DNA from: an uncultured Methanosarcinales archaeon
GTDB taxonomy: Archaea; Nanobdellota; Nanobdellia; Woesearchaeales; CAYPCY01
NCBI GenBank assembly: GCA_964409385.1
Contig: CAYPCY010000003.1
Span: 1,885-65,884, forward strand
Length of the DNA: 64,000 bases
Reading direction: 5' to 3'
Shown here: piece by piece, positions 1-63,713 of the stretch
Numbering within the stretch: the stretch's first letter is position 1
Layout: every line of letters starts with the position of its first letter
The notes under the pieces: generated by a model
What the model was told of the DNA's origin: nothing
Seen by the model: only the letters and a program-made list of their open reading frames with translations
The model's database searches: none
Translations under genes and position numbers: made by a program

Positions 1-3000
1 CAGGACAATCATCACTAGAATAAGCACCACAATCTATATTACCACTACATTCATAACTAGCAAACCTAACACAAACAAGATCTTCAATCTTATAAAATAC
101 AGATGCTCCAGTATCATCCCAGTTATTACCATCATACCACGCATGAGGCCAAAGCCGCCAAGCAGTATCATAACTCTCAAAATCATCAAACCCATATTCA
201 ATACAAAACTGTCTAGCAGTTAAAGCAACATATTCATGATCTGAAGGATTATAACCTAATATATCCCCCTGATATCCAGGATCTAAAAAAGTATAAGAAT
301 TAGAAGGAGAATCAGAACAATCACAACCAATAGGACAATTATCCTCAATTTGAGGAGGAGTCTCCTCCTCACAACAAGTTCCAGGATACTGACCACAAGC
401 AACATCACAAGTTATACCCTCTATAAAAATTCCAAGACATTCATCAACTTCTAAATCAAAAATACACATTTCTGGCCCGTCAGGGAAGCAACAAGCACCA
501 AGAGTAGGAATTTCATCATCACCATTACCCTCACCCTCAGGAGCAAAAGACAAGTCACAATCTTCACACTCAAAATCTAAATTTAATGCATCTTCAAAAG
601 GAAGAATAACAGAAGGACCCTCACTTTCACTCGTTTCACAATCATCATCCTGATTACAAGTATCAGGAATACCAGGTTCATTATCCATACTCCATTCACA
701 AGAATCACCCGCACAAAACTTATGACGACAATCCAAATTATCATAACACACGTCAGAACCAGAACCAGAAACTTCAACACACTGACCATTCACACAAGCA
801 GCATGCGTTTCATCACTCGCGCAAACACCCACGAAAGAACCTGAAGGACAAGAAGGACTACCAGAACAAGAACCATCCATAGAACACTCATTAAATCCTG
901 ATTCACAACCATAACCTTCATTATAAAAAACATCACAACCACTATTTATAGTTCCAGTACAAGCACCAGTCAAACCACAAACAGGAGAAACACAATTACC
1001 AACAGTATCATACGCTTCCTGACAAGTTATAGAAGCATCACCCTCGCACACTTCATCCAAACTACAAGACCCAGAACAACCACCAGTTTCAGAATAAATA
1101 ACACCACAAGCCACTGTAGGACTGCCCGTGCAAACCTCAGAAGTAGAACAAGAACCCCCACAATTTGCCATATCATCATCCCACATTGAACAATCCTGAG
1201 TAGAACCACCACTACAAACCTGCCCCAAATTCAACCCGCCATCAAAGAAGGAAAACCCATCAGAAGTACCAATCCAAATTTTACCATCCCAAAATTCAAT
1301 AGACAAAATATCATTGCTAGGCAATAATGAATTTTCAGTATTATAAACATTCCAAGAAGAACCATCAAAACTAGCAACACCATTAGTAGTTGCAAGCCAC
1401 AACAAATTAGAATCATCAACAGTTAAATCTAAAACAGTATCGCTAGGAATCCCAGAATTTCCAGTATTATAAACACTCCAATCACTACTCAAACCAACCA
1501 ATCCCGCATTAGTAGCAGACCAGACAACACCACCAACCTTCAAAACATCATTAACACCAGAACCTAACGCTTCATTATTAGAAGAAGTAAAACTAGCACC
1601 ACCACCAAACCTGGCAATAACCTCAATAAACTTAACAGAACTATCAGGATTGGCATTGAAAGAGAAAGTACAAGAACTAGAACTTCCAGGAAGATAAATA
1701 TTATTAGGACCTTCATCAAGACTACAAGATCCAGGACTAATATGCAAATTATCTCCGTTAATTCTATTATTCTCATCATCATAAGGAATAACAAAAATTA
1801 AAGAATCAGAATTATCGCTACTCCCTGCAAGAGTGAAAGAATCACCAGATTTAATATCATGAACAGGAATTCTCCTCAAAATAATCTCATTATTAGCTTG
1901 AACACTAACATTTCCATAATCAACAAGAATATTATTACAATCATCAGAATAACTATTCCAAGTCTGTCCAATAGACGCACAACTGTAAGAAATACTATTA
2001 CAAGTAGAACCACTAGCAAAAGAATTACAAGCTTCATCTCCTGAATTATACTGAAAACCAGCCCCTTCAGCCATTACTTGAGAAAAAGAAGCAGCATAAC
2101 TATTACTATTATCACCCCTAGAATTAAACCAAGTCTTAGGCTCATAATTAAAATTATAAGAATTACCGTTAGACTTAACAATCCTCTTCAAAGTCCACCT
2201 ATTAATATCCTGACCTAATAATGCAGAAAACTTCTGCATAGTACTAGTACCCGCATTCTTCTCATTCTCATTACATCCCGGACAGAAATAACCAAAACTA
2301 TCACTAAAATCAGCAATATACTCAATACCCTTACAAACACCAATATTACCATCAGAATCCATTTCAAAAGAACAAAAACCAGCACCACCATCAGCAGTAG
2401 TACACTCCTGCCCAACCTTTTCAAGATTCCAATCATACAAGAATAAAGAAGGATTAGACTCTGAAGAAGTCAAAAGAGCTCCCGAATTAGAAGACAGCTT
2501 CTTTAACTCACCAAAAGTACAATCTGAAAATGAAGCTCCCCCAACACCACCAATAACTTCTCTAACCGCGTTAGAAACCTCACCATCCCCATTTGAAGTA
2601 AGCCTACACTGACCAACAGTATCCGAATTAATATAAATTCTTTTTCCGTGAATGTCTTTTCTAGCTTGTTTTCTTCCCTCTTTTATACAACCTTGACTCC
2701 TACAAAGTTCCCAATTTCCTGATATATCACAATCAATTGGATCAAATGGATAATATTTGTATGTACAAGGAACAACTGCCTGATACTCATCAAGAGAAGA
2801 AACATCAATACTACCACTTAAAAAACTACAATCGTCATCACCAATCCCACCAGTCTCAAACAATTCAGCACAAAAATTTTCAATATCAACAGTTCTTAAA
2901 GAAGCCTTCCAAAAAGAATTAGTTCCAGACTTACAATCATCAACATTATTACATTCACAAATAGGCTCACAATACCTTTCCAAACAATAAGTCTCCAAAC

Positions 3001-3064
3001 CACCAGCCATTACAAAATTAACACTAACCAAAAACAACAACCCAAACAAAATCTTCTTAATCAT
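1..3064 (-). CDS. Large secreted cysteine-rich protein, 3'-partial (runs off the left window edge), with signal peptide, Reg_prop/Y_Y_Y-like beta-propeller repeats and Cys-rich C-terminal modules
   Basis: Absent from the supplied ORF track. Plus-strand triplets at positions 2-4, 5-7 and so on contain no tta/cta/tca from 2 to 3064, giving 1021 sense codons on the minus strand with no stop. ATG at 3064-3062 overlaps the upstream stop (ATGATTAA). N-terminus MIKKILFGLLFLVSVNFVMAGG. Repeats WSVYNTGNSGIPSDTVLDLTVDDSNLLWLATTNGVASFDGSSWNVYNTENSLLPSNDILSIEFWDGKIWIGTSDGFSFFDG. Confidence 0.8.
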   Translation of the reverse strand, partial: MIKKILFGLLFLVSVNFVMAGGLETYCLERYCEPICECNNVDDCKSGTNSFWKASLRTVDIENFCAELFETGGIGDDDCSFLSGSIDVSSLDEYQAVVPCTYKYYPFDPIDCDISGNWELCRSQGCIKEGRKQARKDIHGKRIYINSDTVGQCRLTSNGDGEVSNAVREVIGGVGGASFSDCTFGELKKLSSNSGALLTSSESNPSLFLYDWNLEKVGQECTTADGGAGFCSFEMDSDGNIGVCKGIEYIADFSDSFGYFCPGCNENEKNAGTSTMQKFSALLGQDINRWTLKRIVKSNGNSYNFNYEPKTWFNSRGDNSNSYAASFSQVMAEGAGFQYNSGDEACNSFASGSTCNSISYSCASIGQTWNSYSDDCNNILVDYGNVSVQANNEIILRRIPVHDIKSGDSFTLAGSSDNSDSLIFVIPYDDENNRINGDNLHISPGSCSLDEGPNNIYLPGSSSSCTFSFNANPDSSVKFIEVIARFGGGASFTSSNNEALGSGVNDVLKVGGVVWSATNAGLVGLSSDWSVYNTGNSGIPSDTVLDLTVDDSNLLWLATTNGVASFDGSSWNVYNTENSLLPSNDILSIEFWDGKIWIGTSDGFSFFDGGLNLGQVCSGGSTQDCSMWDDDMANCGGSCSTSEVCTGSPTVACGVIYSETGGCSGSCSLDEVCEGDASITCQEAYDTVGNCVSPVCGLTGACTGTINSGCDVFYNEGYGCESGFNECSMDGSCSGSPSCPSGSFVGVCASDETHAACVNGQCVEVSGSGSDVCYDNLDCRHKFCAGDSCEWSMDNEPGIPDTCNQDDDCETSESEGPSVILPFEDALNLDFECEDCDLSFAPEGEGNGDDEIPTLGACCFPDGPEMCIFDLEVDECLGIFIEGITCDVACGQYPGTCCEEETPPQIEDNCPIGCDCSDSPSNSYTFLDPGYQGDILGYNPSDHEYVALTARQFCIEYGFDDFESYDTAWRLWPHAWYDGNNWDDTGASVFYKIEDLVCVRFASYECSGNIDCGAYSSDDCP

Positions 3065-5576
3065 TGTATTCAAAACTTATCGTGTCACAAACCCCATCAG
3101 TCTTACCACAAGTTACAACATTGTTCAAAGTATAAACACCATACCCATAAGCAGGAGCTCCATTTCTTGAAAGTTTCTTTAAACTATATTGGTTATTTAC
3201 TGAAACATCCTTGTTAAAGTAAACCTTTCTAATCCTCTCCCTCTTTGAATAATCATCATAAATAAATAATTCTATATCATCAAGCTTATGCTGATAATCA
3301 ACAGCCCCAGCCTCGCAAGTAAAAGCATCACCAGCTATATAACCAGAATCATCAACTGCCGAACCAGAACAACCACCTCCCGAATTCCTACACTTAAATT
3401 GTTTGGTTGAAAAGTCAAAACTCCAAGGAGTCTTCCAAGAATGACTATTGGAAGAAGAACCATCCGAACTGTCAGAACCATAATAAACATAATCTTCATA
3501 TTCATTACTGGATGTTCTAGACAACATCCCTTTAGGTGCACTACTAGTATCATCTCCCCACGGTGCAGATTCTAAACTATCAAGTCTAGGAGAAGTAGAA
3601 AATTCAGCCTCTCCAAAAGGAGTAAATATTTTATGAATATACTCAACAGAATTAAAACCACCAAAGTAAGACTCATCAGCTTCAATAGTCCAACAATTAC
3701 CACCACCATCCTTTATTCCATTATCCCCAGAACAATCCGCTTCCATGGTAGGCATGTTTTCACCTTCTAAAGGTCCAAAATTATAACCACAATTACCAGC
3801 TAATCCTGACTCGTGCTCAATAATCCTATCATAAGTAAAAGAAATCCAAGAACCCTTAGAAGTATCATGGACAACTTCACAATTAGATGAACTATCACCA
3901 CACAAATAATCACCATTATCACTAATAACAACAGAACCTGAAGTTCCAGGATTTCCCAAACTCCTCTGACTCCCACCATGCTTAACCAAAGAATCCTCTA
4001 AAGGATTTAATTTTCCCCTATATTCAGGACCTAAAATTGCAGTTAATTTCCAACTAGTAACATACGGTTTAACAGTGAATTCTGAATGTCTATTAATATT
4101 ATCAGTAACAAACCCGTCCGCTTCATAACTAATATGAGTATAAGTATGACTTCCACTAATATAAGTCCAAGTCTTATCAAGAGCATCCTCATCCAAAGAA
4201 CCATAAACAAACCTACTACCTCCCAAATCAGTAACCACAAACATTTCAATAAGTCCAGAAGTACCCCTAAAATACTCAATCTTAGGATTATGAAATTGAT
4301 TACTTAAAATTCTAAAACCCTTAAAAGGCTCATAATACATATTTCCTCCAGGACCTCCAGAAATACTCCAAGAATCCTGCTTTCCAATATCACTCATACC
4401 AAACTGAATCTTAGGAAATTGGAAAACTTTAGACTTAATATCCGACACTCCATACAATGCACTCCTAGGAATGAAAACAGCATCAGGATTTGCAGTATCA
4501 AAAAAACTAAACCATTGATCCCGAACACTATTAACTCCATCATTAGATAATTTTGTAGGCTCTGAAAAATACTCATCAAAAGTAATATAACCAAAAGGAC
4601 TCTCTATAAAATCTCCTGCTGCAGTATTAGGATTATTAATACTCTTCCAATCACCACCAACCTGATAAGCAGGAAAACCTCTAACATAACCAGAAATAGG
4701 ATCAATACTACTTACCATGCCAACTCCAAACGTCAATATTGTCTTGTAATAATTAAGTTTAGCCCCTAACTTCACAAGTGCAATAACAACCTCATAAGTT
4801 TTTATAGCATCATAAGCCATCTTAGAAGCATATGCTGTAGCAGCCAATTCCGCAGCAGCCTTAGCACCATCATAATATGCAGTACTTACTAAATTAGCAT
4901 ATTCACCAAGACCTGCAGTAACTAATGATATTATTAAATTTTTAAGAGCAGGAAACAAAACATCCTTACCTAATTTTAATTTCATCACCCCCTCCCAACC
5001 ACCTTCTAACGCCGCCACAGTAATTGTTAAAGCTATAGTTAATGCGAAAGCAACATAAGGCAACATGGCTGCGAACGCAGTAGCTCCTGCTGCAGAAGTC
5101 AAGACTCCTGCAGATCCAGTCAGTGAAAGACCACCAGTTAAAATAGCTACTACAATAACAACAATAACAACAATAATCATAATAAAAACATCTCCCCACT
5201 TCTCCCACCAAGATCTTTGATCAGCAGTATTAGAAACATCAATATTATTCACATAAACAGTTTTATCCTCTTCAAATGCATAATCGTCAGGAACTCCACT
5301 AACAAGACGAGAAATAGAACCAACATCCAATCCCCAACCGAGACCAACCCAAGAAGAAGGAGAATAAGTTTTAATACCTGCACCACCAGTATAAGTTAAA
5401 CCAACACTTTGATGTAATTCATTCATTCCAGGAACTACAACAAGATTTTCTCCATAACTTAATTCTCCAAATTGATCAGACGCACTAGGACTTCCTGCAG
5501 ATACAGATTGTAAAAAAACTAAAGAAACAACTAGATAAACCATGAACAAACTTAAAAATTTTAATTTAGTGTTCAA
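3057..5576 (-). CDS. Secreted SpvB/TcB-N-terminal-like protein with an internal two-helix membrane insertion
   Basis: ORF track 3057..5612, whose first codon is TTG. The in-frame TTG at 5576 overlaps the upstream stop (TTGA) and gives signal peptide (M)NTKLKFLSLFMVYLVVSLVFLQSVSA; an alternative ATG lies at 5543. Motif GLTYTGGAG..WVGLGWGLDVGSISRLVSGVPDDY resembles the SpvB/TcaC N-terminal signature. Later VKPYVTSWKLTAILGPEY resembles the TcdB-mid region. Confidence 0.6.
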   Translation of the reverse strand: MNTKLKFLSLFMVYLVVSLVFLQSVSAGSPSASDQFGELSYGENLVVVPGMNELHQSVGLTYTGGAGIKTYSPSSWVGLGWGLDVGSISRLVSGVPDDYAFEEDKTVYVNNIDVSNTADQRSWWEKWGDVFIMIIVVIVVIVVAILTGGLSLTGSAGVLTSAAGATAFAAMLPYVAFALTIALTITVAALEGGWEGVMKLKLGKDVLFPALKNLIISLVTAGLGEYANLVSTAYYDGAKAAAELAATAYASKMAYDAIKTYEVVIALVKLGAKLNYYKTILTFGVGMVSSIDPISGYVRGFPAYQVGGDWKSINNPNTAAGDFIESPFGYITFDEYFSEPTKLSNDGVNSVRDQWFSFFDTANPDAVFIPRSALYGVSDIKSKVFQFPKIQFGMSDIGKQDSWSISGGPGGNMYYEPFKGFRILSNQFHNPKIEYFRGTSGLIEMFVVTDLGGSRFVYGSLDEDALDKTWTYISGSHTYTHISYEADGFVTDNINRHSEFTVKPYVTSWKLTAILGPEYRGKLNPLEDSLVKHGGSQRSLGNPGTSGSVVISDNGDYLCGDSSSNCEVVHDTSKGSWISFTYDRIIEHESGLAGNCGYNFGPLEGENMPTMEADCSGDNGIKDGGGNCWTIEADESYFGGFNSVEYIHKIFTPFGEAEFSTSPRLDSLESAPWGDDTSSAPKGMLSRTSSNEYEDYVYYGSDSSDGSSSNSHSWKTPWSFDFSTKQFKCRNSGGGCSGSAVDDSGYIAGDAFTCEAGAVDYQHKLDDIELFIYDDYSKRERIRKVYFNKDVSVNNQYSLKKLSRNGAPAYGYGVYTLNNVVTCGKTDGVCDTISFEYND

Positions 5577-6559
5577 CAATAACCACCCGGTTTCCAAGTA
5601 CAAACATTCCAAACATACATATTACTACTATCATCCATAAACATTAATTCATCTCCAGCCTGAACATTCAATTGCCAATTATTAGAAGAATAAATATCTG
5701 CAGCCCCATCCTTAAGATAGATTAAATCAGGATATTCAGCGCCCATTTTGTGAATGAACTGAACAAGATCTGTATCCGTCGCATCAGGCCCTAAAACTTG
5801 TCTTCCGAAAGTCCAAGCGTCACCAGCTTCATATGTTTCTGTAACCATCATAGGAATATCCTCAATAATAATATCTTCATCCAAAAATTCATCCTCATCT
5901 TGAACTGGAACGTAAGGTCTATCAGGTCTTTCACCAATACACGGAATTTTACTACCATCAGGACAAGTGTTTCTAATAAAACTACTAAAACTAATAATTC
6001 TACTAGTCATATCAACCAATGGCTGAATTAATGCTCTAGGATGAGCCATTCCGCCCGTTTTTATAAAATTAGGAGCAGAAGCTGCAATTAAAGGACCACT
6101 ACCAGAAACAGACCCTTTAGATCTAGCTCCTGAAGGCGCCTCAAATAAAGATTCTAAATTATAAAGACCAGGAACTTCAGGAGTTACCCTCCTATAAGGA
6201 TTATTTCCTGAAAAAGTATACGCATTCAATGTTTGAGGATCAGAAAAAGTCATTGAAGGCCTCGCAACCATAAACCGCCCACTATCTGGAGAATAAGGAC
6301 CATACAAATTAGAAGTCCACTCCCTAATTTCACTTTTATATTGTAAAGTCTCCAAAGTTTTGTAAATTCCCCTACCAAAAGGCAAGTAATCCTGAATATC
6401 CTTTAAACAAATACTATCGTTAAACATACTCCTAACATTATTAAAAGCATCAAGCTGATAATAATCAATACCCCCCTCGTCATGAACTTTAGCAATCAAT
6501 TGTTGATTAGACCTTAAGTAAGAAGTTCCTAAAGAAAGTGGTAGAACTAAAAAAATCAA
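5573..6559 (-). CDS. Small secreted protein carrying an RHS repeat-associated core followed by a roughly 190-aa variable C-terminal domain
   Basis: YYQLDAFNNVRSMFND..DYLPFGRG..NLYGPYSPDSGRFMVARPS..DPQTLNAYTFSGNNPYRRVTPEVPGL matches the Rhs core pattern (YxxDxLGS, PFG, RYYDPxxGRF, NxYxYxxNNP, DPxGL). The track start is TTG and the true start is uncertain, because the frame stays open upstream to 6625 with no ATG. Confidence 0.65.
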   Translation of the reverse strand: MIFLVLPLSLGTSYLRSNQQLIAKVHDEGGIDYYQLDAFNNVRSMFNDSICLKDIQDYLPFGRGIYKTLETLQYKSEIREWTSNLYGPYSPDSGRFMVARPSMTFSDPQTLNAYTFSGNNPYRRVTPEVPGLYNLESLFEAPSGARSKGSVSGSGPLIAASAPNFIKTGGMAHPRALIQPLVDMTSRIISFSSFIRNTCPDGSKIPCIGERPDRPYVPVQDEDEFLDEDIIIEDIPMMVTETYEAGDAWTFGRQVLGPDATDTDLVQFIHKMGAEYPDLIYLKDGAADIYSSNNWQLNVQAGDELMFMDDSSNMYVWNVCTWKPGGYC

Positions 6560-6579
6560 TAAAAATACTAATAAATACC

Positions 6580-7419
6580 TTATTTTGAACTCTTCAAAAA
6601 CTCCGATTCTAAACTTACCCCTCTTTTAACACTCACTAGTTCTGGAGCTAAAAGTAACTTTAAAAGTTTACTTTCCTCCCCCTTATTACTAAATATAACC
6701 TCTAAAGTATTATCTTTGTAGATGAAACTTTTTATATATTTTTTTCTTTTTATGTCATTAATTAGCTTAGGTCTTGACGAATACTTAGCAATAATCTTAC
6801 ATTCCTTAATCAAATCAGAAATTTTAACAATTTTCTTAACTTTGCCCTTATTCAAAATCAATGCAGTATCACAAAGTTCTTCAACCTCACTCAAATTATG
6901 AGAACAATAAATCATAGTCTTGTTTTCAGAAACTTTTTTTATTAAATCCCTAATGCTCTTTCCAACTTTAGGATCTAAACCAGAAATTGGCTCATCAAAA
7001 ACAAGAATTTCAGGATTTCCAATTAACGCCTGTGCAATTTGTAAACGCTTCCTCATACCATGAGATAATTTACCAATTTTAGTGTTTGCTTCAGAATCAA
7101 GACTTACCATTCTTAACAATTTAGAAGTTTCATTTCCAGAAACAGCATATAATGAACACATTAAATTCAAAAAATCAGAACAAGTCATTCCAACCTCCAA
7201 ACTAGAATCTTGAGGCATAACACCCAATTTTAATGATTTAACTCTTAAATTTCCAGAAGTCTTATGAACAAAACCTGAAAGAATATTAATAAAAGTAGAT
7301 TTTCCAGCACCATTCTCTCCAACAATTGCAAACCTTGAATTTTTAGGGATAGTAAATGAAACATTAACTAATGCTCTCCTCTTTCCATAATTCTTGCCCA
7401 AACTATTAACATTAATCAC
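6580..7419 (-). CDS. ABC transporter ATP-binding protein
   Basis: Walker A GENGAGKST, signature LSHGMRKRL, Walker B ILVFDEPISGLD, H-loop CSHNL. Confidence 0.9.
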   Translation of the reverse strand: MINVNSLGKNYGKRRALVNVSFTIPKNSRFAIVGENGAGKSTFINILSGFVHKTSGNLRVKSLKLGVMPQDSSLEVGMTCSDFLNLMCSLYAVSGNETSKLLRMVSLDSEANTKIGKLSHGMRKRLQIAQALIGNPEILVFDEPISGLDPKVGKSIRDLIKKVSENKTMIYCSHNLSEVEELCDTALILNKGKVKKIVKISDLIKECKIIAKYSSRPKLINDIKRKKYIKSFIYKDNTLEVIFSNKGEESKLLKLLLAPELVSVKRGVSLESEFLKSSK

Positions 7420-8165
7420 AAATCAGACCTCTCAATATTAAACCAGGATAACAAGAAAAAAGTAAATGAATAAATAATCAATTTGAAATAACTCAAAAAT
7501 TTATTGGAAGATTCTGCAAATCCAATATTAACATGTGAAAATATAGAAAGCCAAGATATTAAATCAATACTCCATGCAAAAATTAAGAATAAAAAACCAC
7601 CAAACCCAAGAACTAATGATAATGCTGAACTTTTCAAAAAAGAAGATAAGAAAGTATAGAAAGAAGCCAATCCTAAAGAATAAATTGAAAGATACAACCA
7701 AGGATGAAAAAATCCAGAAAAATTAAATGAAGAATCAAACTTGAAAACTAAAACAATATTAGTAATCAAAAAGAAAACTCCTAAAATAAAAAATAAAAGA
7801 AAGAAAACAGAAAGTATTTTAGACAATAAAAACTCAATTCTAGAAACTCGCAATAAATAATACCTAATATTATTATTTTGCCTATGTTCTGAAATAGAAT
7901 TATAAGATAAAATTAAAATTACTAAAGGTAAAAAAATTATTGAAAGAATGAAAGGAATAAAAATATTCAAACTGCCAAATTCATTCTCTAATTTTTCATA
8001 AACATCAACTCCAATATCCCTATCTTGAAGTTTTTCATTAATAGCATCAGTAATATAAAAACCAAAAAACATTGTTATAATTAACATTACAAGAGCAAGA
8101 ATCGCTTTCCACTCAAGAAAATAAGAAAAAAAATCTTTTCTTAACAAAACAAGAAATTTATTCAT
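7416..8165 (-). CDS. ABC-2-type transporter permease (multi-pass membrane protein)
   Basis: About six hydrophobic helices. The 4-nt overlap with the downstream ATPase gene suggests translational coupling. Confidence 0.6.
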   Translation of the reverse strand: MNKFLVLLRKDFFSYFLEWKAILALVMLIITMFFGFYITDAINEKLQDRDIGVDVYEKLENEFGSLNIFIPFILSIIFLPLVILILSYNSISEHRQNNNIRYYLLRVSRIEFLLSKILSVFFLLFFILGVFFLITNIVLVFKFDSSFNFSGFFHPWLYLSIYSLGLASFYTFLSSFLKSSALSLVLGFGGFLFLIFAWSIDLISWLSIFSHVNIGFAESSNKFLSYFKLIIYSFTFFLLSWFNIERSDL

Positions 8166-8505
8166 TTTTCAATTTCTTCCTCTGATAGAGCAAGTACATA
8201 ATAATAATCATTACAAGAACAATAATTATTGAAAACGCCAATATTAAAGACTTCCTAAGTTCAGGTTCTTTCTCCTTAAGCTGTTCCCTTACAGACACTT
8301 CAGGATCTTGCGCGTCAAGAAAACCATAACATGCAGCTTGCTGATCACCTTCTAAATTAGAACATGCATCAACACTTTCAGTTTCAGCAACAACCCTATA
8401 AACACAACGTAAATTATTACCACAATCATTAGCTTCAGAAGATGGCGAAGCAACTACTAAAAAAGAAAATAAAACTGTGAACAAAATAAACAATGCTAAT
8501 CTCAT
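8158..8505 (-). CDS. Small exported Cys-containing protein with C-terminal membrane anchor
   Basis: Signal peptide MRLALFILFTVLFSFLVVASPSSEA, a Cys-containing ectodomain, and a C-terminal TM segment ILAFSIIIVLVMIIIMYLL followed by a basic tail. Overlaps the permease gene by 8 nt. Confidence 0.5.
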   Translation of the reverse strand: MRLALFILFTVLFSFLVVASPSSEANDCGNNLRCVYRVVAETESVDACSNLEGDQQAACYGFLDAQDPEVSVREQLKEKEPELRKSLILAFSIIIVLVMIIIMYLLYQRKKLKNE

Positions 8506-58919: not shown

Positions 58920-60032
58920 CTAGATTAAATTCTTACTTCTCAACTCCTTATCCGCCTCATCAAACAAATCAACAGAATCTTCATTCTCAGCCCAAGAAAC
59001 AAGCTTCTTCAAACCATCCTCAAAAGAAACCAACGGTTTCCAACCAAGCAACTTAAAAGCCTTAGAAATATCAGCATAACAATGTCTAACATCACCCTTC
59101 CTAAACTCCTTAGTAATTCTAGGCCGAATATCAGAACTAAAAATATCAGCAAGAACTAACGCAACATCCTTAATCCTAGTCGGAACACCACTACCAATAT
59201 TAAAAACCTCAAAAGAAACATCAGACTCCAAAACTTTAACAAAAGAATCCACAACATCAGTCACATAAACAAAATCCCTAGTCTGATTACCATCCTCAAA
59301 AACAACAGGCTCATTACCAGACTTCAAACGACTCATAAAAATAGCAGAAACACCAGTATAAGGATTACTCAAAGACTGCCGAGGACCAAAAACATTAAAC
59401 AACCTCAAACAAACAGTATTAATACCATACCTCCTACCAAGCAATAAAGACAAATCCTCCTGAACTTCTTTACTCAAAGAATAAACATTAGAAGGATCAA
59501 AAACAGTCTCTTCATTAGTAGGAACAGGACTCATTTCCTCACCGCAATCCCCACAAACCGGATTCCAAATTCCCTTTTCCACATCAATATCTTCAAAAGT
59601 TCTCAAACCCATCTTAAACTGTCCACAAGAACACTTATACAAACCCTCCCCATAAGAACTCATAGAAGTAGGAATTAAAACCTTCTTAACATCCAATTTC
59701 TCATTAACAATAATATCATACAAATTAGAAATCCCCATAACATTAGCACTCATATAATGAGAAACCTTATACATACTCTGACCAATACCAACAGCAGAAG
59801 CCAAGTGAAAAACAAACTCCTTACCAATTAAAACCTTCTTAAAATCATCATAATTAGAAACATCACCAAAAACAAATTCTGCATCAGGATTCAAATAATC
59901 AGGCTTCTTACCATTATGAACCTGCTCCTCCAAATTATCAAAAATAGTAACTTCATGACCTAACTCAATAAGCTTATCAACAAGAAACCCACCAATAAAT
60001 CCAGCACCCCCAGTAACTAAAATTTTACTCAT
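58920..60032 (-). CDS. NAD-dependent sugar epimerase/dehydratase (SDR) with inserted zinc ribbon
   Basis: Rossmann motif VTGGAGFIGG, catalytic YxxxK (YSLSK) and inserted CSCG..CGDC. Confidence 0.8.
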   Translation of the reverse strand: MSKILVTGGAGFIGGFLVDKLIELGHEVTIFDNLEEQVHNGKKPDYLNPDAEFVFGDVSNYDDFKKVLIGKEFVFHLASAVGIGQSMYKVSHYMSANVMGISNLYDIIVNEKLDVKKVLIPTSMSSYGEGLYKCSCGQFKMGLRTFEDIDVEKGIWNPVCGDCGEEMSPVPTNEETVFDPSNVYSLSKEVQEDLSLLLGRRYGINTVCLRLFNVFGPRQSLSNPYTGVSAIFMSRLKSGNEPVVFEDGNQTRDFVYVTDVVDSFVKVLESDVSFEVFNIGSGVPTRIKDVALVLADIFSSDIRPRITKEFRKGDVRHCYADISKAFKLLGWKPLVSFEDGLKKLVSWAENEDSVDLFDEADKELRSKNLI

Positions 60033-61197
60033 TCTTCACAGCCTCACAAATTTCAGTCAGAATCATATCAATATCATACTCATAATCCCAACCCGGATAA
60101 TGCTTCTTAAATTTTGACATGTCAGAAACATACCAAATATGATCTCCAGTCCTATTAATATCAGAAAATTCAATATTTCCCTTCCTACCAAAATAATTCT
60201 CAATCCAGTCTATAGATTCTATCATAGAAATATTAGAATATCTACCACCACCCAAATTATAAATTTCTCCAGGCCTAGGATTATTAGCAAAAGCATCAAA
60301 AACATTCAAAACATCACTAGCATGAATATTATCCCTAACCTGCTTCCCTTTATAACCATTAACAACATACTTCTCACCAGAATAAATACACTTAACAAGA
60401 TAAACAAGAAACCCATGAAGCCTAGTTCCCGCATGAGCAGGACCAGTCAAACAACCACCCCTAAACACGCCCGTTTTCAAAACTTTCCCGCCAGCAATTT
60501 CTGAATTTCTACCATACTCTGCAACTAAAGATTCCGCACCTAGTTTATCAACACCAAACAAACTCCTAACTGGAGGAGTCAAGTCAGTAAATAAACTCTT
60601 CAAATAAGAATCATCAGGATTATTAATATCTAAAGGCACATCTTCAGGAATACCATTCCAATAATCATGCCCCTTATCAAGCTCCCACCTCGTATCCTGC
60701 TCAACAAGCCTTAACTTATTAGGCATATCACCATAAACCTTATTAGTAGAAGTGTAAATAAAAACAGCATCAGAACAATACTTCTTAGTAGCCTCTAACA
60801 AAACCAAAGTGCCCATTTGATTAACAGTAAAATCAGTCATAGGACCAGAGGAATCCAAAATCTTAGACAAACCATTCTTATCCTTCTCCAAAATTTCATC
60901 AACAGCAGGCCAATCATGAGAAGGCTGAGCAGCAGCATGAATAATTAAATCAAAATTATTCTCTTTAAAGATCTTACTAACACTCTCCTCATCACGAATA
61001 TCAACAGAATGATGAACATAATTATCAAAAGACTCTAACTCATCAAGCATAGGCTTTGTTGAAGCGCCTTCATCATGAAAAAATTTAAGCCTCATATCAT
61101 TATCAACACCAACAACCCTAGAACCTTTAGAAGCATAAAACTTCACCGCCTCACTACCAATCAAACCACAAGAGCCAGTAACTAAAACATTCTTCAT
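60025..61197 (-). CDS. NAD-dependent epimerase/dehydratase (CDP-paratose 2-epimerase-like)
   Basis: VTGSCGLIGS Rossmann motif, YTSTNKVYG and a C-terminal RTGDHIWYVSD pattern; 390 aa. Confidence 0.75.
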   Translation of the reverse strand: MKNVLVTGSCGLIGSEAVKFYASKGSRVVGVDNDMRLKFFHDEGASTKPMLDELESFDNYVHHSVDIRDEESVSKIFKENNFDLIIHAAAQPSHDWPAVDEILEKDKNGLSKILDSSGPMTDFTVNQMGTLVLLEATKKYCSDAVFIYTSTNKVYGDMPNKLRLVEQDTRWELDKGHDYWNGIPEDVPLDINNPDDSYLKSLFTDLTPPVRSLFGVDKLGAESLVAEYGRNSEIAGGKVLKTGVFRGGCLTGPAHAGTRLHGFLVYLVKCIYSGEKYVVNGYKGKQVRDNIHASDVLNVFDAFANNPRPGEIYNLGGGRYSNISMIESIDWIENYFGRKGNIEFSDINRTGDHIWYVSDMSKFKKHYPGWDYEYDIDMILTEICEAVKNE

Positions 61198-61218
61198 GAA
61201 ATAAAGAACAAGAAAGAA

Positions 61219-61944
61219 TTATTTAAATTTAACCACTCCCAATCTGTAAGGAAGAAATTTGAAAACAATAAATAAATATTTAGACATTAGAAAAAACAAT
61301 TTAAACTTTGAAACCCCCACTTCACGACCAATCCACCTGACAGGAGTTTGCCTGAACTTTTCTCCCTTAACCAAAGCAAGAAGAGAAATCTCCGCAGTCA
61401 ATTCAAACCCTTCCGACTTAAACTTATAACCTTTAATCAAATCCGACTTAATTAATTGGAAAGCATTAGTCAAATCATTAAACCTAGTGAAAAACAAGAA
61501 AGAAATTAAATTATTACCCAAACGATTAACAAACAATTTCAACTTAGGATAATTAGAAATTTCTCTTTTAATAAAACGATTAGTAAAAACAGCATCAAAA
61601 CCACCCTCAGACAAATTAACCATCCTAGACAAATCCTTAGGATCATCAGAAGCATCAGCCATAACCAAAGAAAAATACTTAGAATCTAACTTCTTCAAAC
61701 CAGCACGAACAGCATTACCAAAACCATTATTTCTCTTCCTTAATACAGGAATAATCAAAGAACCATATTTCCTAACCAACAAATTAATTTCTTCCCGAGT
61801 CCCATCAATACTACAATCATTAACAACAATTAATTTAAAAGAAACCCTTGTTTTTTTTAATTCAGTAATCAAAGCATCCGCACAACTAAATAAATTTCCT
61901 TCTTCATTATGTGCTGGAATTATAACATTCAAATAACTACTCAT
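61219..61944 (-). CDS. Family 2 glycosyltransferase (dolichyl-phosphate sugar synthase-like)
   Basis: IIPAHNEE, VVNDCSIDGT and MADASDDP (DxD-type) motifs. Confidence 0.8.
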   Translation of the reverse strand: MSSYLNVIIPAHNEEGNLFSCADALITELKKTRVSFKLIVVNDCSIDGTREEINLLVRKYGSLIIPVLRKRNNGFGNAVRAGLKKLDSKYFSLVMADASDDPKDLSRMVNLSEGGFDAVFTNRFIKREISNYPKLKLFVNRLGNNLISFLFFTRFNDLTNAFQLIKSDLIKGYKFKSEGFELTAEISLLALVKGEKFRQTPVRWIGREVGVSKFKLFFLMSKYLFIVFKFLPYRLGVVKFK

Positions 61945-61946
61945 CT

Positions 61947-63713
61947 TTATCCACTCTTATTATATCTAAACAAATAAGCATAAGTATTACCATTAACAAA
62001 GAAAATATTCTCTTGATAAAATAACTCATCAAAGTTTAATGACATGTTTTGAGGAGGAATAATGAGCATCTCAGTAACAAAACCCTTCTCAATAGTCTGT
62101 GCAGGATCTAAAGTGGTTAATTGCTTAACATACAAAATATTATTCTCAATTAATTCTTTCTCAAATTCAGGAGATGTCTTGACAGGATAATTCATAAAAT
62201 ACTGATCCAAGTACAAATACTTAATAGAATAATTATCTAACAACTCCTTTTGCAAAGTAATATTATTAGAATACCAAATCAAAACAGCATCCTTAATTCT
62301 CTCATTAATATCAACAAAATAACTAGCATGAGTTCGTCTAGTAATCATAACCTTCTTCCCAGATAATGCTTGTAAACCAAAAGAAGTCTCATCATTAGCC
62401 AATATTGCCTTGTCATTAGGTAAATTCGTCTTAAAATAATCCCCAATATTGTGCAATTCAGTCATATCTGCCTTAGTACCATGCTCAAACCAGCGACCCT
62501 CTCTAACATTCCCATAACTAACAACTAAATTACTCAACACCAAAATAAAAACAAGCAAGTAACTAAACTTAACAAATTGTTTAGAAAATTTCTTCACAAT
62601 TAAATAAACACCAATAATTCCAAAAGCAAAAAATATTGGCTTGAAAAAAACAAAATAATTCAACTTAGGAACGAACACCCAAAAAGCAAACAAAGGCCTA
62701 GTAATCTGATGATGCTGCAAAATAACCAAATTAGTAAAGAAAAAACTCAATAAAATTTTAGATTCTTTCCTCTTAAAATTCATAATTAATAATATAAAAC
62801 CGACAACAACAAATAAAGAAATAAGAACATTTACAAAAGATGAAAAATTAAAGAAAAAATTCTTCAAAGAAGTCAATAACCAACCAAAACCTAAATGAGT
62901 AATATAAGTATCACCATATTGCATTACCGGATTAGGACGAGAACTCCCATAACGAAAAAACAAAGGCAAAAAATAAATTAAAGAAACTAAAATTGCAGAA
63001 GCGAACAAGGAATAATACTTTTTAATATAAATCCAAACACCATTGAATCCATTCTTCTTCAAATTAGAAAAATAATCAAACAACAAATAAACTCCGAAGA
63101 ACGCCAAACCAATCAAAAACTTAGAACCATGAACTAACGAAGTCAACCCCAAAAAAACACCAGAATAAAGCAAATTTCTAACATGCTGATGTTTCAGCTC
63201 ATACTTCAGAAAAAAATAAATAGAAGCTGGAAGAAAAACAAACTCACCAAAACGAGTTCCCTTCGAACCAATAAACACAATACTAGAAATTATAAAAAAC
63301 AAATACAAAAACTTCACATACAACTCTTTCTTAAACAACAAATCAGCAAGTTTATAATGAATAAACAACATCAAAGAAGTAGTTAATAAAGGAAAGAAAA
63401 TCATCAACTTATCAACATTAAAAGATAAAAATTTGGCAAGAAAGCCTAAAACTGCAAAGTACAACCAAGGATAATACTGCAACTCACCAAGATAATAGCC
63501 ATCCTCCCAAGGCATGAACCCTTGAACAACACTCTCAATAAACCCCCTATCCCTATAAAAATCGCCGCCATAAACAGGCCCGTTAAGACTAGTCAAAGAA
63601 ACCATTAAAGAAAATTGAATAATCAGATAAGCAATCAACAACAAAACAAACAAAGATTTATAATTCCAAAATTTAGAAAAGTCAACCTTAAAATCTTCAC
63701 TCATCAAAAACAA
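61947..63713 (-). CDS. Polytopic GT-C-type glycosyltransferase (ArnT/PMT-like)
   Basis: More than ten TM helices, an N-terminal loop with an acidic motif, and a soluble C-terminal domain; 588 aa. Confidence 0.5.
   Translation of the reverse strand: MFLMSEDFKVDFSKFWNYKSLFVLLLIAYLIIQFSLMVSLTSLNGPVYGGDFYRDRGFIESVVQGFMPWEDGYYLGELQYYPWLYFAVLGFLAKFLSFNVDKLMIFFPLLTTSLMLFIHYKLADLLFKKELYVKFLYLFFIISSIVFIGSKGTRFGEFVFLPASIYFFLKYELKHQHVRNLLYSGVFLGLTSLVHGSKFLIGLAFFGVYLLFDYFSNLKKNGFNGVWIYIKKYYSLFASAILVSLIYFLPLFFRYGSSRPNPVMQYGDTYITHLGFGWLLTSLKNFFFNFSSFVNVLISLFVVVGFILLIMNFKRKESKILLSFFFTNLVILQHHQITRPLFAFWVFVPKLNYFVFFKPIFFAFGIIGVYLIVKKFSKQFVKFSYLLVFILVLSNLVVSYGNVREGRWFEHGTKADMTELHNIGDYFKTNLPNDKAILANDETSFGLQALSGKKVMITRRTHASYFVDINERIKDAVLIWYSNNITLQKELLDNYSIKYLYLDQYFMNYPVKTSPEFEKELIENNILYVKQLTTLDPAQTIEKGFVTEMLIIPPQNMSLNFDELFYQENIFFVNGNTYAYLFRYNKSG

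Follow-up and report, generated by a model that had tools for sequence, protein, structure and literature searches.

Do the Rhs- and Tc-toxin building blocks found in an archaeon form a working system, and if so, of what kind? This question is raised by an operon at the start of a 64,000-nt stretch of DNA (the window) from contig CAYPCY010000003.1 (positions 1,885 to 65,884, forward strand), whose source organism is a DPANN (Nanobdellati) archaeon. An earlier reading of the sequence (the original prediction) had placed an Rhs-associated core in one gene (here gene A) and an SpvB/TcB-N-like start in the next (gene B). Our searches indicate that the motifs behind this prediction reflect homology, and we are confident of the homology and gene architecture of the Rhs/Tc-like operon set out below, as judged from sequence. 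As to its nature, we lean slightly towards a multi-subunit, membrane-anchored relative of the YD-shell proteins (Rhs, Tc-toxin BC and teneurins), which would form a surface assembly with the product of gene A as its plug. The surface assembly and function of the products, taken by themselves, are proposed more hesitantly, as something that may well prove otherwise.

Organization of the operon

A tight operon on the minus strand fills positions 1-8505 of the window, and its neighbouring genes overlap or are separated by gaps of at most 20 nt. The gene order is: a small membrane protein, an ABC-2 pair, A, B, C, D, E and a Yip1-like gene, the last genes being read in syntenic loci, since the window covers only the first two and a half of the A-B-C-D-E genes. 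The features of these genes are as follows.

5573..6559, minus strand: gene A (open reading frame (ORF) of 328 aa), with a short hydrophobic leader, a degenerate Rhs-associated core and a hypervariable C-terminal tail
6092..6529, minus strand: residues 11-156 of A, predicted last YD-like strands and Rhs core-like module (YYQLD..PFG..GRF..NNPYRRVTPEVPGL..EAPSG)
5576..6091, minus strand: residues 157-328 of A, hypervariable tail ending in CxWxPGGxC, without a known domain
3057..5576, minus strand: gene B (839 aa from TTG), with a predicted signal peptide, SpvB/TcaC-N-like motif, transmembrane (TM) hairpin and TcB-like body
5274..5471, minus strand: residues 25-90 of B, SpvB/TcaC-N-like start motif (..LTYTGGAGI..SWVGLGWGLDVGSISRLVSGVPDD)
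5010..5192, minus strand: residues 118-178 of B, two hydrophobic helices (predicted TM hairpin) after the N-motif
1..3064, minus strand: gene C, N-terminal 1021 aa of 1501, with a predicted signal peptide and a Cys-rich region with Reg_prop blades; the conserved ends continue the TcB-like body

Genes A and B are joined by the TTGA start/stop overlap described in the original prediction, in which a TTG in the frame of B shares its TG with the TGA stop codon of A (5576..5573). Gene callers pick an ATG at 5543 for B, 29 nt downstream of the TTG, which gives 828 aa; we favour the TTG, because the orthologue in NIOZ-UU113, a Nanobdellati (DPANN) archaeon and the nearest genome with a name, has an ATG where the longer form begins. 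Gene C starts at the ATG at 3064, and its open frame leaves the window at the window start.

The Rhs-associated core of gene A

Gene A is predicted to encode a secreted protein with a real, but divergent and degenerate, Rhs-associated core in its first ~150 aa. The ORF indeed carries the motifs that had been listed for it (YYQLD, PFG, DSGRF, NAYTFSGNNP and TPEVPGL). Scans of full-length A, B and C with Pfam and NCBIfam gave nothing above threshold, and the window A protein scores 19.6 bits (E=1e-3) against the TIGR03696 profile, whose curated cut-off is 32.5 bits. TIGR03696 was the sole family matched repeatedly by members of the A family (4 of the 6 scanned, below the cut-off), and the positional orthologue of A in a more distant DPANN locus (L015), which is homologous to the window protein (BLASTP, 1e-14), reaches 37.6 bits and thus passes it.

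The same assignment was obtained with tblastn, using residues 11-145 of A as a query against 72,556 plasmids: 16 of the 25 matches listed are coding sequences annotated as RHS-core, polymorphic-toxin HINT or YD-repeat proteins. The best match covers 99% of the query and corresponds to residues ~1295-1440 of a 1565-aa Rhs protein of Paraglaciecola, i.e., to its C-terminal core. The core is common to 10 A-like proteins (26-93% identity, E<=1e-11 for every pair, hhalign probability 96-98%). It begins at residue ~11 of A, so that no YD shell precedes it in the same polypeptide; it directly follows the signal peptide in nine of the ten proteins and a Cys-rich domain in the remaining one (L018). A word-index homologue search retrieved just four relatives of A and two of B, a metagenome scan with the A core gave no new relatives, and a broader profile (A4) matched Rhs structures in the PDB solely via YD repeats.

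The leader of A, read from its TTG start, is only ~11 aa long (MIFLVLPLSLG) and has no charged n-region, and the same is seen in P0004 (window 6557..6583, minus strand). Orthologues of other lineages carry full signal peptides, and the true start or export route of A in this subclade is therefore uncertain. For the A-like protein of L015 (8949..10004), a precomputed Pfam label (PF25023, TEN_YD-shell) was not reproduced by hmmscan at E<=0.01.

The canonical Rhs core ends in two DPxGL motifs, the second of which holds the catalytic Asp (D1338 in Rhs1; PMC8636562). DPxGL is present in none of the 10 A-like proteins, in which the corresponding position reads VTPEVPGL, IPIEVPDL, LSFRVPNL and others. 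With the catalytic Asp absent from the A family, canonical Rhs aspartyl autocleavage is therefore unlikely.

The hypervariable tail of gene A

As expected of Rhs_assc_core proteins, the core of A is followed by a variable C-terminal domain. The tail is slightly shorter than originally stated (~172 aa, residues 157-328, instead of about 190 aa), and its predicted variability is borne out: at least seven mutually unrelated groups were distinguished among the 10 A-like proteins (no BLASTP match between lineages; hhalign probability at most 9%). The B proteins of the window and NIOZ-UU113 are 47% identical over their full length, yet the A tails of these two genomes are unrelated, which points to replacement of the tail rather than drift. 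At the border of core and tail, 15-25 aa after NNP(F/Y)R, most A-like proteins carry an (E/P)AP.G motif (FEAPSGA and variants; in the window protein at residues ~141-150, about 6100..6130, minus strand), which could be a hinge, a recombination border or the site of another protease. In the tail of the L001 protein, two sub-threshold Pfam matches were found (E of 0.15 and 0.27, at an E limit of 10). Several tails look by eye as if they contained a LysM-like domain (x-G-D/S-x-W ... A/P-G-D), but this idea was supported neither by Pfam nor by hhalign between tails and was dropped.

A conserved core followed by a hypervariable tail is also the hallmark of classical polymorphic Rhs toxins, and rare RHS polymorphic toxins are known from a few archaea, e.g., Methanosarcina (PMC3482391). 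On that account, the tail of A would be an autoproteolytically released enzymatic toxin aimed at siblings, with a cognate immunity protein in the producer. We regard this as improbable, since the Asp of the second DPxGL motif is missing from every A-like member, none of the eight tails scanned has a significant match to a Pfam family, and a small variable gene never follows A, whose downstream neighbour is in every case the conserved B. Upstream genes are conserved as well, and in none of the eight loci compared (see below) does a small variable gene, as a candidate immunity gene, stand beside A. For the relative of YD-shell proteins that we prefer, the absence of an immunity gene with A and the life of DPANN archaea on hosts suggest that the likely target is the host cell (by contact, adhesion or effector delivery) and not siblings.

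Gene B, a TcB-like part with a predicted membrane anchor

Sequence comparison shows the whole of gene B to be homologous to the N-terminal ~800 aa of long RHS-repeat proteins. An exhaustive HMMER search with B found 1038 relatives at E<=1e-3, mostly the N-termini of 1400-2400-aa proteins, which match B collinearly at residues 25-90, 420-510, 560-665 and 740-825. Among 31 of these relatives that were scanned, RHS_repeat was found in eight, DUF6443 in four and SpvB (PF03534) in three (best 1e-4). Full-length B gave no match to PF03534 (a model of ~287 positions with a gathering threshold of 22 bits), and for its first 118 aa SpvB was the only Pfam match (13.1 bits, E=0.054, profile positions 13-76).

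The SpvB/TcB-N-like signature claimed for this ORF (GLGWGLDVGSISR..GVPDDY) is present, and the N-motif is homologous to annotated SpvB/TcaC proteins: its profile, built from 148 relatives, matches two PGAP-annotated SpvB/TcaC proteins with scores of 22-24 bits (conditional E about 1e-8), and does so exactly where their N-termini begin. The motif was also found, by tblastn, at the N-terminus of an "RHS repeat protein" of Hymenobacter (Bacteroidota). On a plasmid of Hymenobacter sp. BRD128 (L022, 3425..14465), an RHS-core gene precedes, with a few small genes in between, a protein with the B-like N-motif that is apparently split into overlapping ORFs of 409 and 1471 aa. This arrangement loosely echoes the archaeal gene order.

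The two helices that follow the N-motif of B have Kyte-Doolittle values of 3.45 and 2.07. This TM hairpin occurs in all 17 closest relatives and in just two of the remaining ~130 (19 of 148 in total) and is thus clade-specific. The NCBI name of an 829-aa B orthologue, "phage holin family protein" (MBC8501359.1), is probably a misnomer driven by the hairpin.

Genes C, D and E and the split of one protein

The lack of a YD-repeat shell, stated in the original prediction, turned out to be an artefact of the window edge. In two syntenic loci (47-79% identity to the window in A and B), C is followed by D (1041-1139 aa), E (1075-1785 aa) and a gene for a Yip1-like membrane protein, and then by RNase J in convergent orientation. 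D and E, which in the window contig would lie beyond the window start, carry YD repeats there. The scores given here for these repeats come from the syntenic loci and not from the window: E exceeds the Pfam RHS_repeat threshold in both (26.2 and 37.0 bits; cut-off 22 bits), and D of L006 exceeds the TIGR01643 cut-off (16.8 versus 15.8 bits). In the Paraglaciecola Rhs protein, the YD region of E aligns to residues 993-1197 (late shell), shortly before the part aligned with A. Additional components of E are CBM_4_9 (carbohydrate-binding) modules and MopE-like repeats. No Pfam match to the TcB mid-region beta-propeller (TcdB_toxin_midN/midC) was found in B, C or D.

Hidden Markov models of C and D match three longer proteins, P0022 (labelled Nanoarchaeota) and P0023 ("archaeon"), both from archaeal metagenome-assembled genomes (MAGs), and P0024 (a JGI metagenome protein). 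In each of them a B-like part is followed by the conserved ends of C, to which P0022 adds a D-like YD region. Since they are fused in this order in other DPANN archaea, B, C and D are pieces of one fissioned TcB-like protein. The reversed order claimed earlier accordingly holds for A only, which precedes the TcB-like gene; B, C and D are collinear with their fused homologues. Gene C itself differs in size, from 452 aa in NIOZ-UU113 (L001 12451..13809) to 1501 aa in the window lineage (full length in L002), owing to a ~1000-aa central Cys-rich insert with Reg_prop-like propeller blades (weak PorZ-like match), gained in the latter.

Orphan core-plus-tail fragments are common beside bacterial rhs genes, and the pieces found here are collinear with single long proteins. 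One might thus see in the operon what is left, in degraded form, of a bacterial Rhs/Tc gene acquired by horizontal transfer, with A as an orphan core fragment and B-E as frameshifted, non-functional pieces. We consider this very improbable: every piece brings along a start codon and a signal peptide of its own, the ORFs are long and free of internal stop codons, the same split is kept between genomes that are just 47% identical in B, and A-like genes with signal peptides are conserved in eight loci.

Conservation and genetic neighbourhood of the module

The original prediction of an A-then-B order was upheld by the comparison with related genomes, in which an A-like gene lies immediately upstream of a B-like gene in all eight loci with a visible upstream region (the window, L006, L001, L015, L017, L018, L019 and L020). 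Most A-like proteins of these loci show, as judged by eye, a signal peptide, and RHS-repeat genes lie downstream. The module is kept across divergent DPANN lineages (Nanoarchaeota, Woesearchaeota and Nanobdellati MAGs), so that any transfer, such as the acquisition from bacteria considered in the original prediction, would not be recent. Upstream of A, three further genes of the operon were distinguished in the window.

7419..6580, minus strand: ABC ATPase (Pfam labels in syntenic loci), separated from A by 20 nt
8165..7416, minus strand: ABC-2 permease (Pfam labels in syntenic loci)
8158..8505, minus strand: Cys-motif protein of 115 aa, the upstream member of the conserved block, which ends in a C-terminal TM segment (putative homologues recognized by eye in L001 and L015)

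The ABC-2 permease/ATPase pair adjoins the A-like gene in six of the eight loci; for the pair in the window (6580..8165, minus strand), export, immunity or mere neighbourhood may be considered. The small Cys-motif protein, which has the pattern CG.N..C.(Y/F)R..A...C..L and a C-terminal TM helix, lies upstream of the module in L001 (6745..7293, 182 aa) and L015 (8345..8962, 205 aa). It may belong to the system, being present even in L015, which has no ABC pair; its similarity was recognized by eye.

Comparison with known systems

The closest parallels to the operon are found in the BC subcomplex of Tc toxins (TcB-TcC, e.g., TcdB2-TccC3 and YenB-YenC2), in which an SpvB/TcaC-type N-terminus also starts the shell-forming protein, the YD repeats are not confined to one polypeptide, the core and hypervariable region are placed on a separate gene product, and an immunity gene is likewise absent. 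Unlike A, which has no shell half, TcC contains about 680 aa of YD repeats before the core. Moreover, the archaeal A lacks the catalytic Asp, its core gene comes first in the operon, and the archaeal TcB-like part consists of three genes plus a TM hairpin, with neither a TcA-like gene nor a match to the TcdB mid-domain. A canonical Tc-like pair was found in a haloarchaeon, on a plasmid of Salinirubellus sp. (NZ_CP147842.1; L023, 1..15455), where a gene for a >2600-aa "neuraminidase-like" (TcA-like) protein is followed by one for a 2512-aa protein with the SpvB/TcaC N-terminal domain.

With Rhs polymorphic toxins (Rhs1, RhsA and Tse5 of the type VI secretion system; TIGR03696), the operon shares the conserved core followed by an unrelated tail in each lineage, and the N-terminus of A aligns to their C-terminal core plug region. 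It differs from them in its archaeal host and in that A has no YD repeats in the same chain, no DPxGL and no immunity gene; A also has a Sec-type leader, whereas their N-terminal domains are linked to PAAR/VgrG. Orphan Rhs core-plus-tail cassettes are not known to carry signal peptides, and they are found downstream of a complete rhs gene, each with an immunity gene as its partner. They resemble A in being short ORFs that have an alternative tail and begin inside the core or slightly ahead of it, but A has a leader, sits upstream and is the sole core in its locus.

Teneurins and bacterial teneurin-like proteins (PMC13018210, PMC5851990) share with the proposed archaeal assembly a membrane anchor and an extracellular YD shell, combined with a propeller and Cys-rich repeats. 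A role in cell-cell contact is plausible, and one E-like protein has a precomputed match to PF25023 (TEN_YD-shell). Each teneurin is a single chain that has one N-terminal TM helix, an FN-plug and an NHL propeller; no such features were detected in the archaeal operon, and the bacterial teneurin-like proteins have immunity genes. The giant SPEARE proteins of Nanohaloarchaeota (PMC6642349) are surface proteins of DPANN archaea with a presumed role in host interaction; they have adhesion domains and a region modelled on a BC toxin subunit. In contrast to the operon products, each of them is a single chain of 3-8.5 kaa that includes protease and restriction-enzyme domains. Full-text searches turned up no paper that connects DPANN lineages with RHS, YD or Tc terms, apart from this BC-toxin-like modelling, and no description of a split, A-first, TM-anchored arrangement.

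Proposed assembly and its main rival

If the preferred reading of the operon as a multi-subunit relative of the YD-shell proteins is correct, the secreted parts would assemble on the cell surface into a YD-sheet or a shell-like structure, anchored by the hairpin of B. The terminal core "plug" would be provided by A, with its exchangeable tail as cargo or tip, and E may act as an extra YD and lectin subunit beside the membrane-anchored B-C-D. The tail would not be freed by canonical aspartyl autocleavage; the (E/P)AP.G motif might then serve as a hinge or be cut by another protease. A more specific version, which we regard as possible but doubtful, is a naturally split Rhs cocoon, whose shell (B-C-D plus E) and plug with cargo (A) would be secreted separately and assemble on the archaeal surface. 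The cargo would be swapped as a whole small gene, with no autoproteolysis, and DPANN archaea would in this way deliver lineage-specific effectors into their hosts, or bind them.

Several results weigh against such an assembly. The AlphaFold2 (AF2) models of A (5 sequences) and B (3 sequences) are unusable (pLDDT of 35.2 and 29.8, respectively) and give neither protein structural support, and a Foldseek search with the A model (best E 0.8) is meaningless for this reason. When the profiles of A, of the A core and of B were searched against PDB sequences, all matches were spurious and no Rhs or Tc chain was among them. Eight tails yielded neither a toxin domain nor a significant Pfam match, seven of them giving none at all at the E limit of 10, and the gene tables of the eight loci contain no large TcA or neuraminidase-like gene as a candidate translocator. 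For the organism of the window, the contig ends 148 aa into D, so that the content of D and E is inferred from the relatives mentioned above (47-79% identical in A and B). Finally, E has no core and ends in a non-YD domain instead of abutting one, and a crude count gave four YD units in E, none or one in D, one in A and nine in a complete Rhs protein; the 24-aa unit model undercounts (as with the nine of the complete Rhs) and permits only a rough comparison. Given this modest number of units, a closed cocoon is not assured.

The main rival, which we consider rather unlikely, is that A-E are independent surface adhesins without a shell, i.e., separate host-binding proteins, either secreted or anchored, in which YD hairpins, Cys-rich repeats, propeller blades and carbohydrate-binding modules are simply put to use again. 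The core of A would then be a structural remnant and its tail a fast-evolving binding tip, comparable to the teneurin C-terminal domain, which lies outside the shell. The loss of the catalytic Asp in all ten A-like proteins suits such adhesins, as do the scarcity of canonical YD units, the lack of both a toxin domain (eight tails, Pfam) and an immunity gene (loci tables), and the CBM_4_9, MopE-like and Reg_prop modules in C and E; furthermore, giant DPANN adhesion proteins with a BC-toxin-like region have already been described (SPEARE; PMC6642349). However, the strict A-then-B adjacency and the collinearity of B-C-D across divergent genomes suggest a single assembly under selection, and the tails are swapped outright rather than gradually diverged, which is typical of cargo cassettes. 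As to the role of the tail, the data agree with a toxin as well as with an adhesin.

Little is known of how DPANN archaea recognize their hosts, attach to them and exploit them, and this conserved operon, with its Rhs/Tc parts and hypervariable tip, is a concrete candidate for the interface. At about 17 kb, it is also a sizeable investment for the typically small DPANN genomes. A multi-subunit relative of the YD-shell proteins, if it is one, would include the first membrane-anchored TcB-like part found and the first case found of a core plug plus cargo as a stand-alone secreted protein, with neither YD repeats in cis nor the autocleavage Asp. Assembly of a cocoon in trans would then be possible and useful for the engineering of cargo exchange.

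Other genes of the window

The remainder of the window contains archaeal housekeeping genes; in the syntenic loci, genes for L37ae, prefoldin, the proteasome and RNase J are present. A cluster at 58920..63713 (minus strand), as judged by eye from the translations, comprises sugar-nucleotide epimerase/dehydratase-like genes, a glycosyltransferase gene and a gene for a large polytopic membrane protein, and is consistent with the synthesis of surface glycans. The cluster has a strongly negative GC skew, like the Rhs-like operon.

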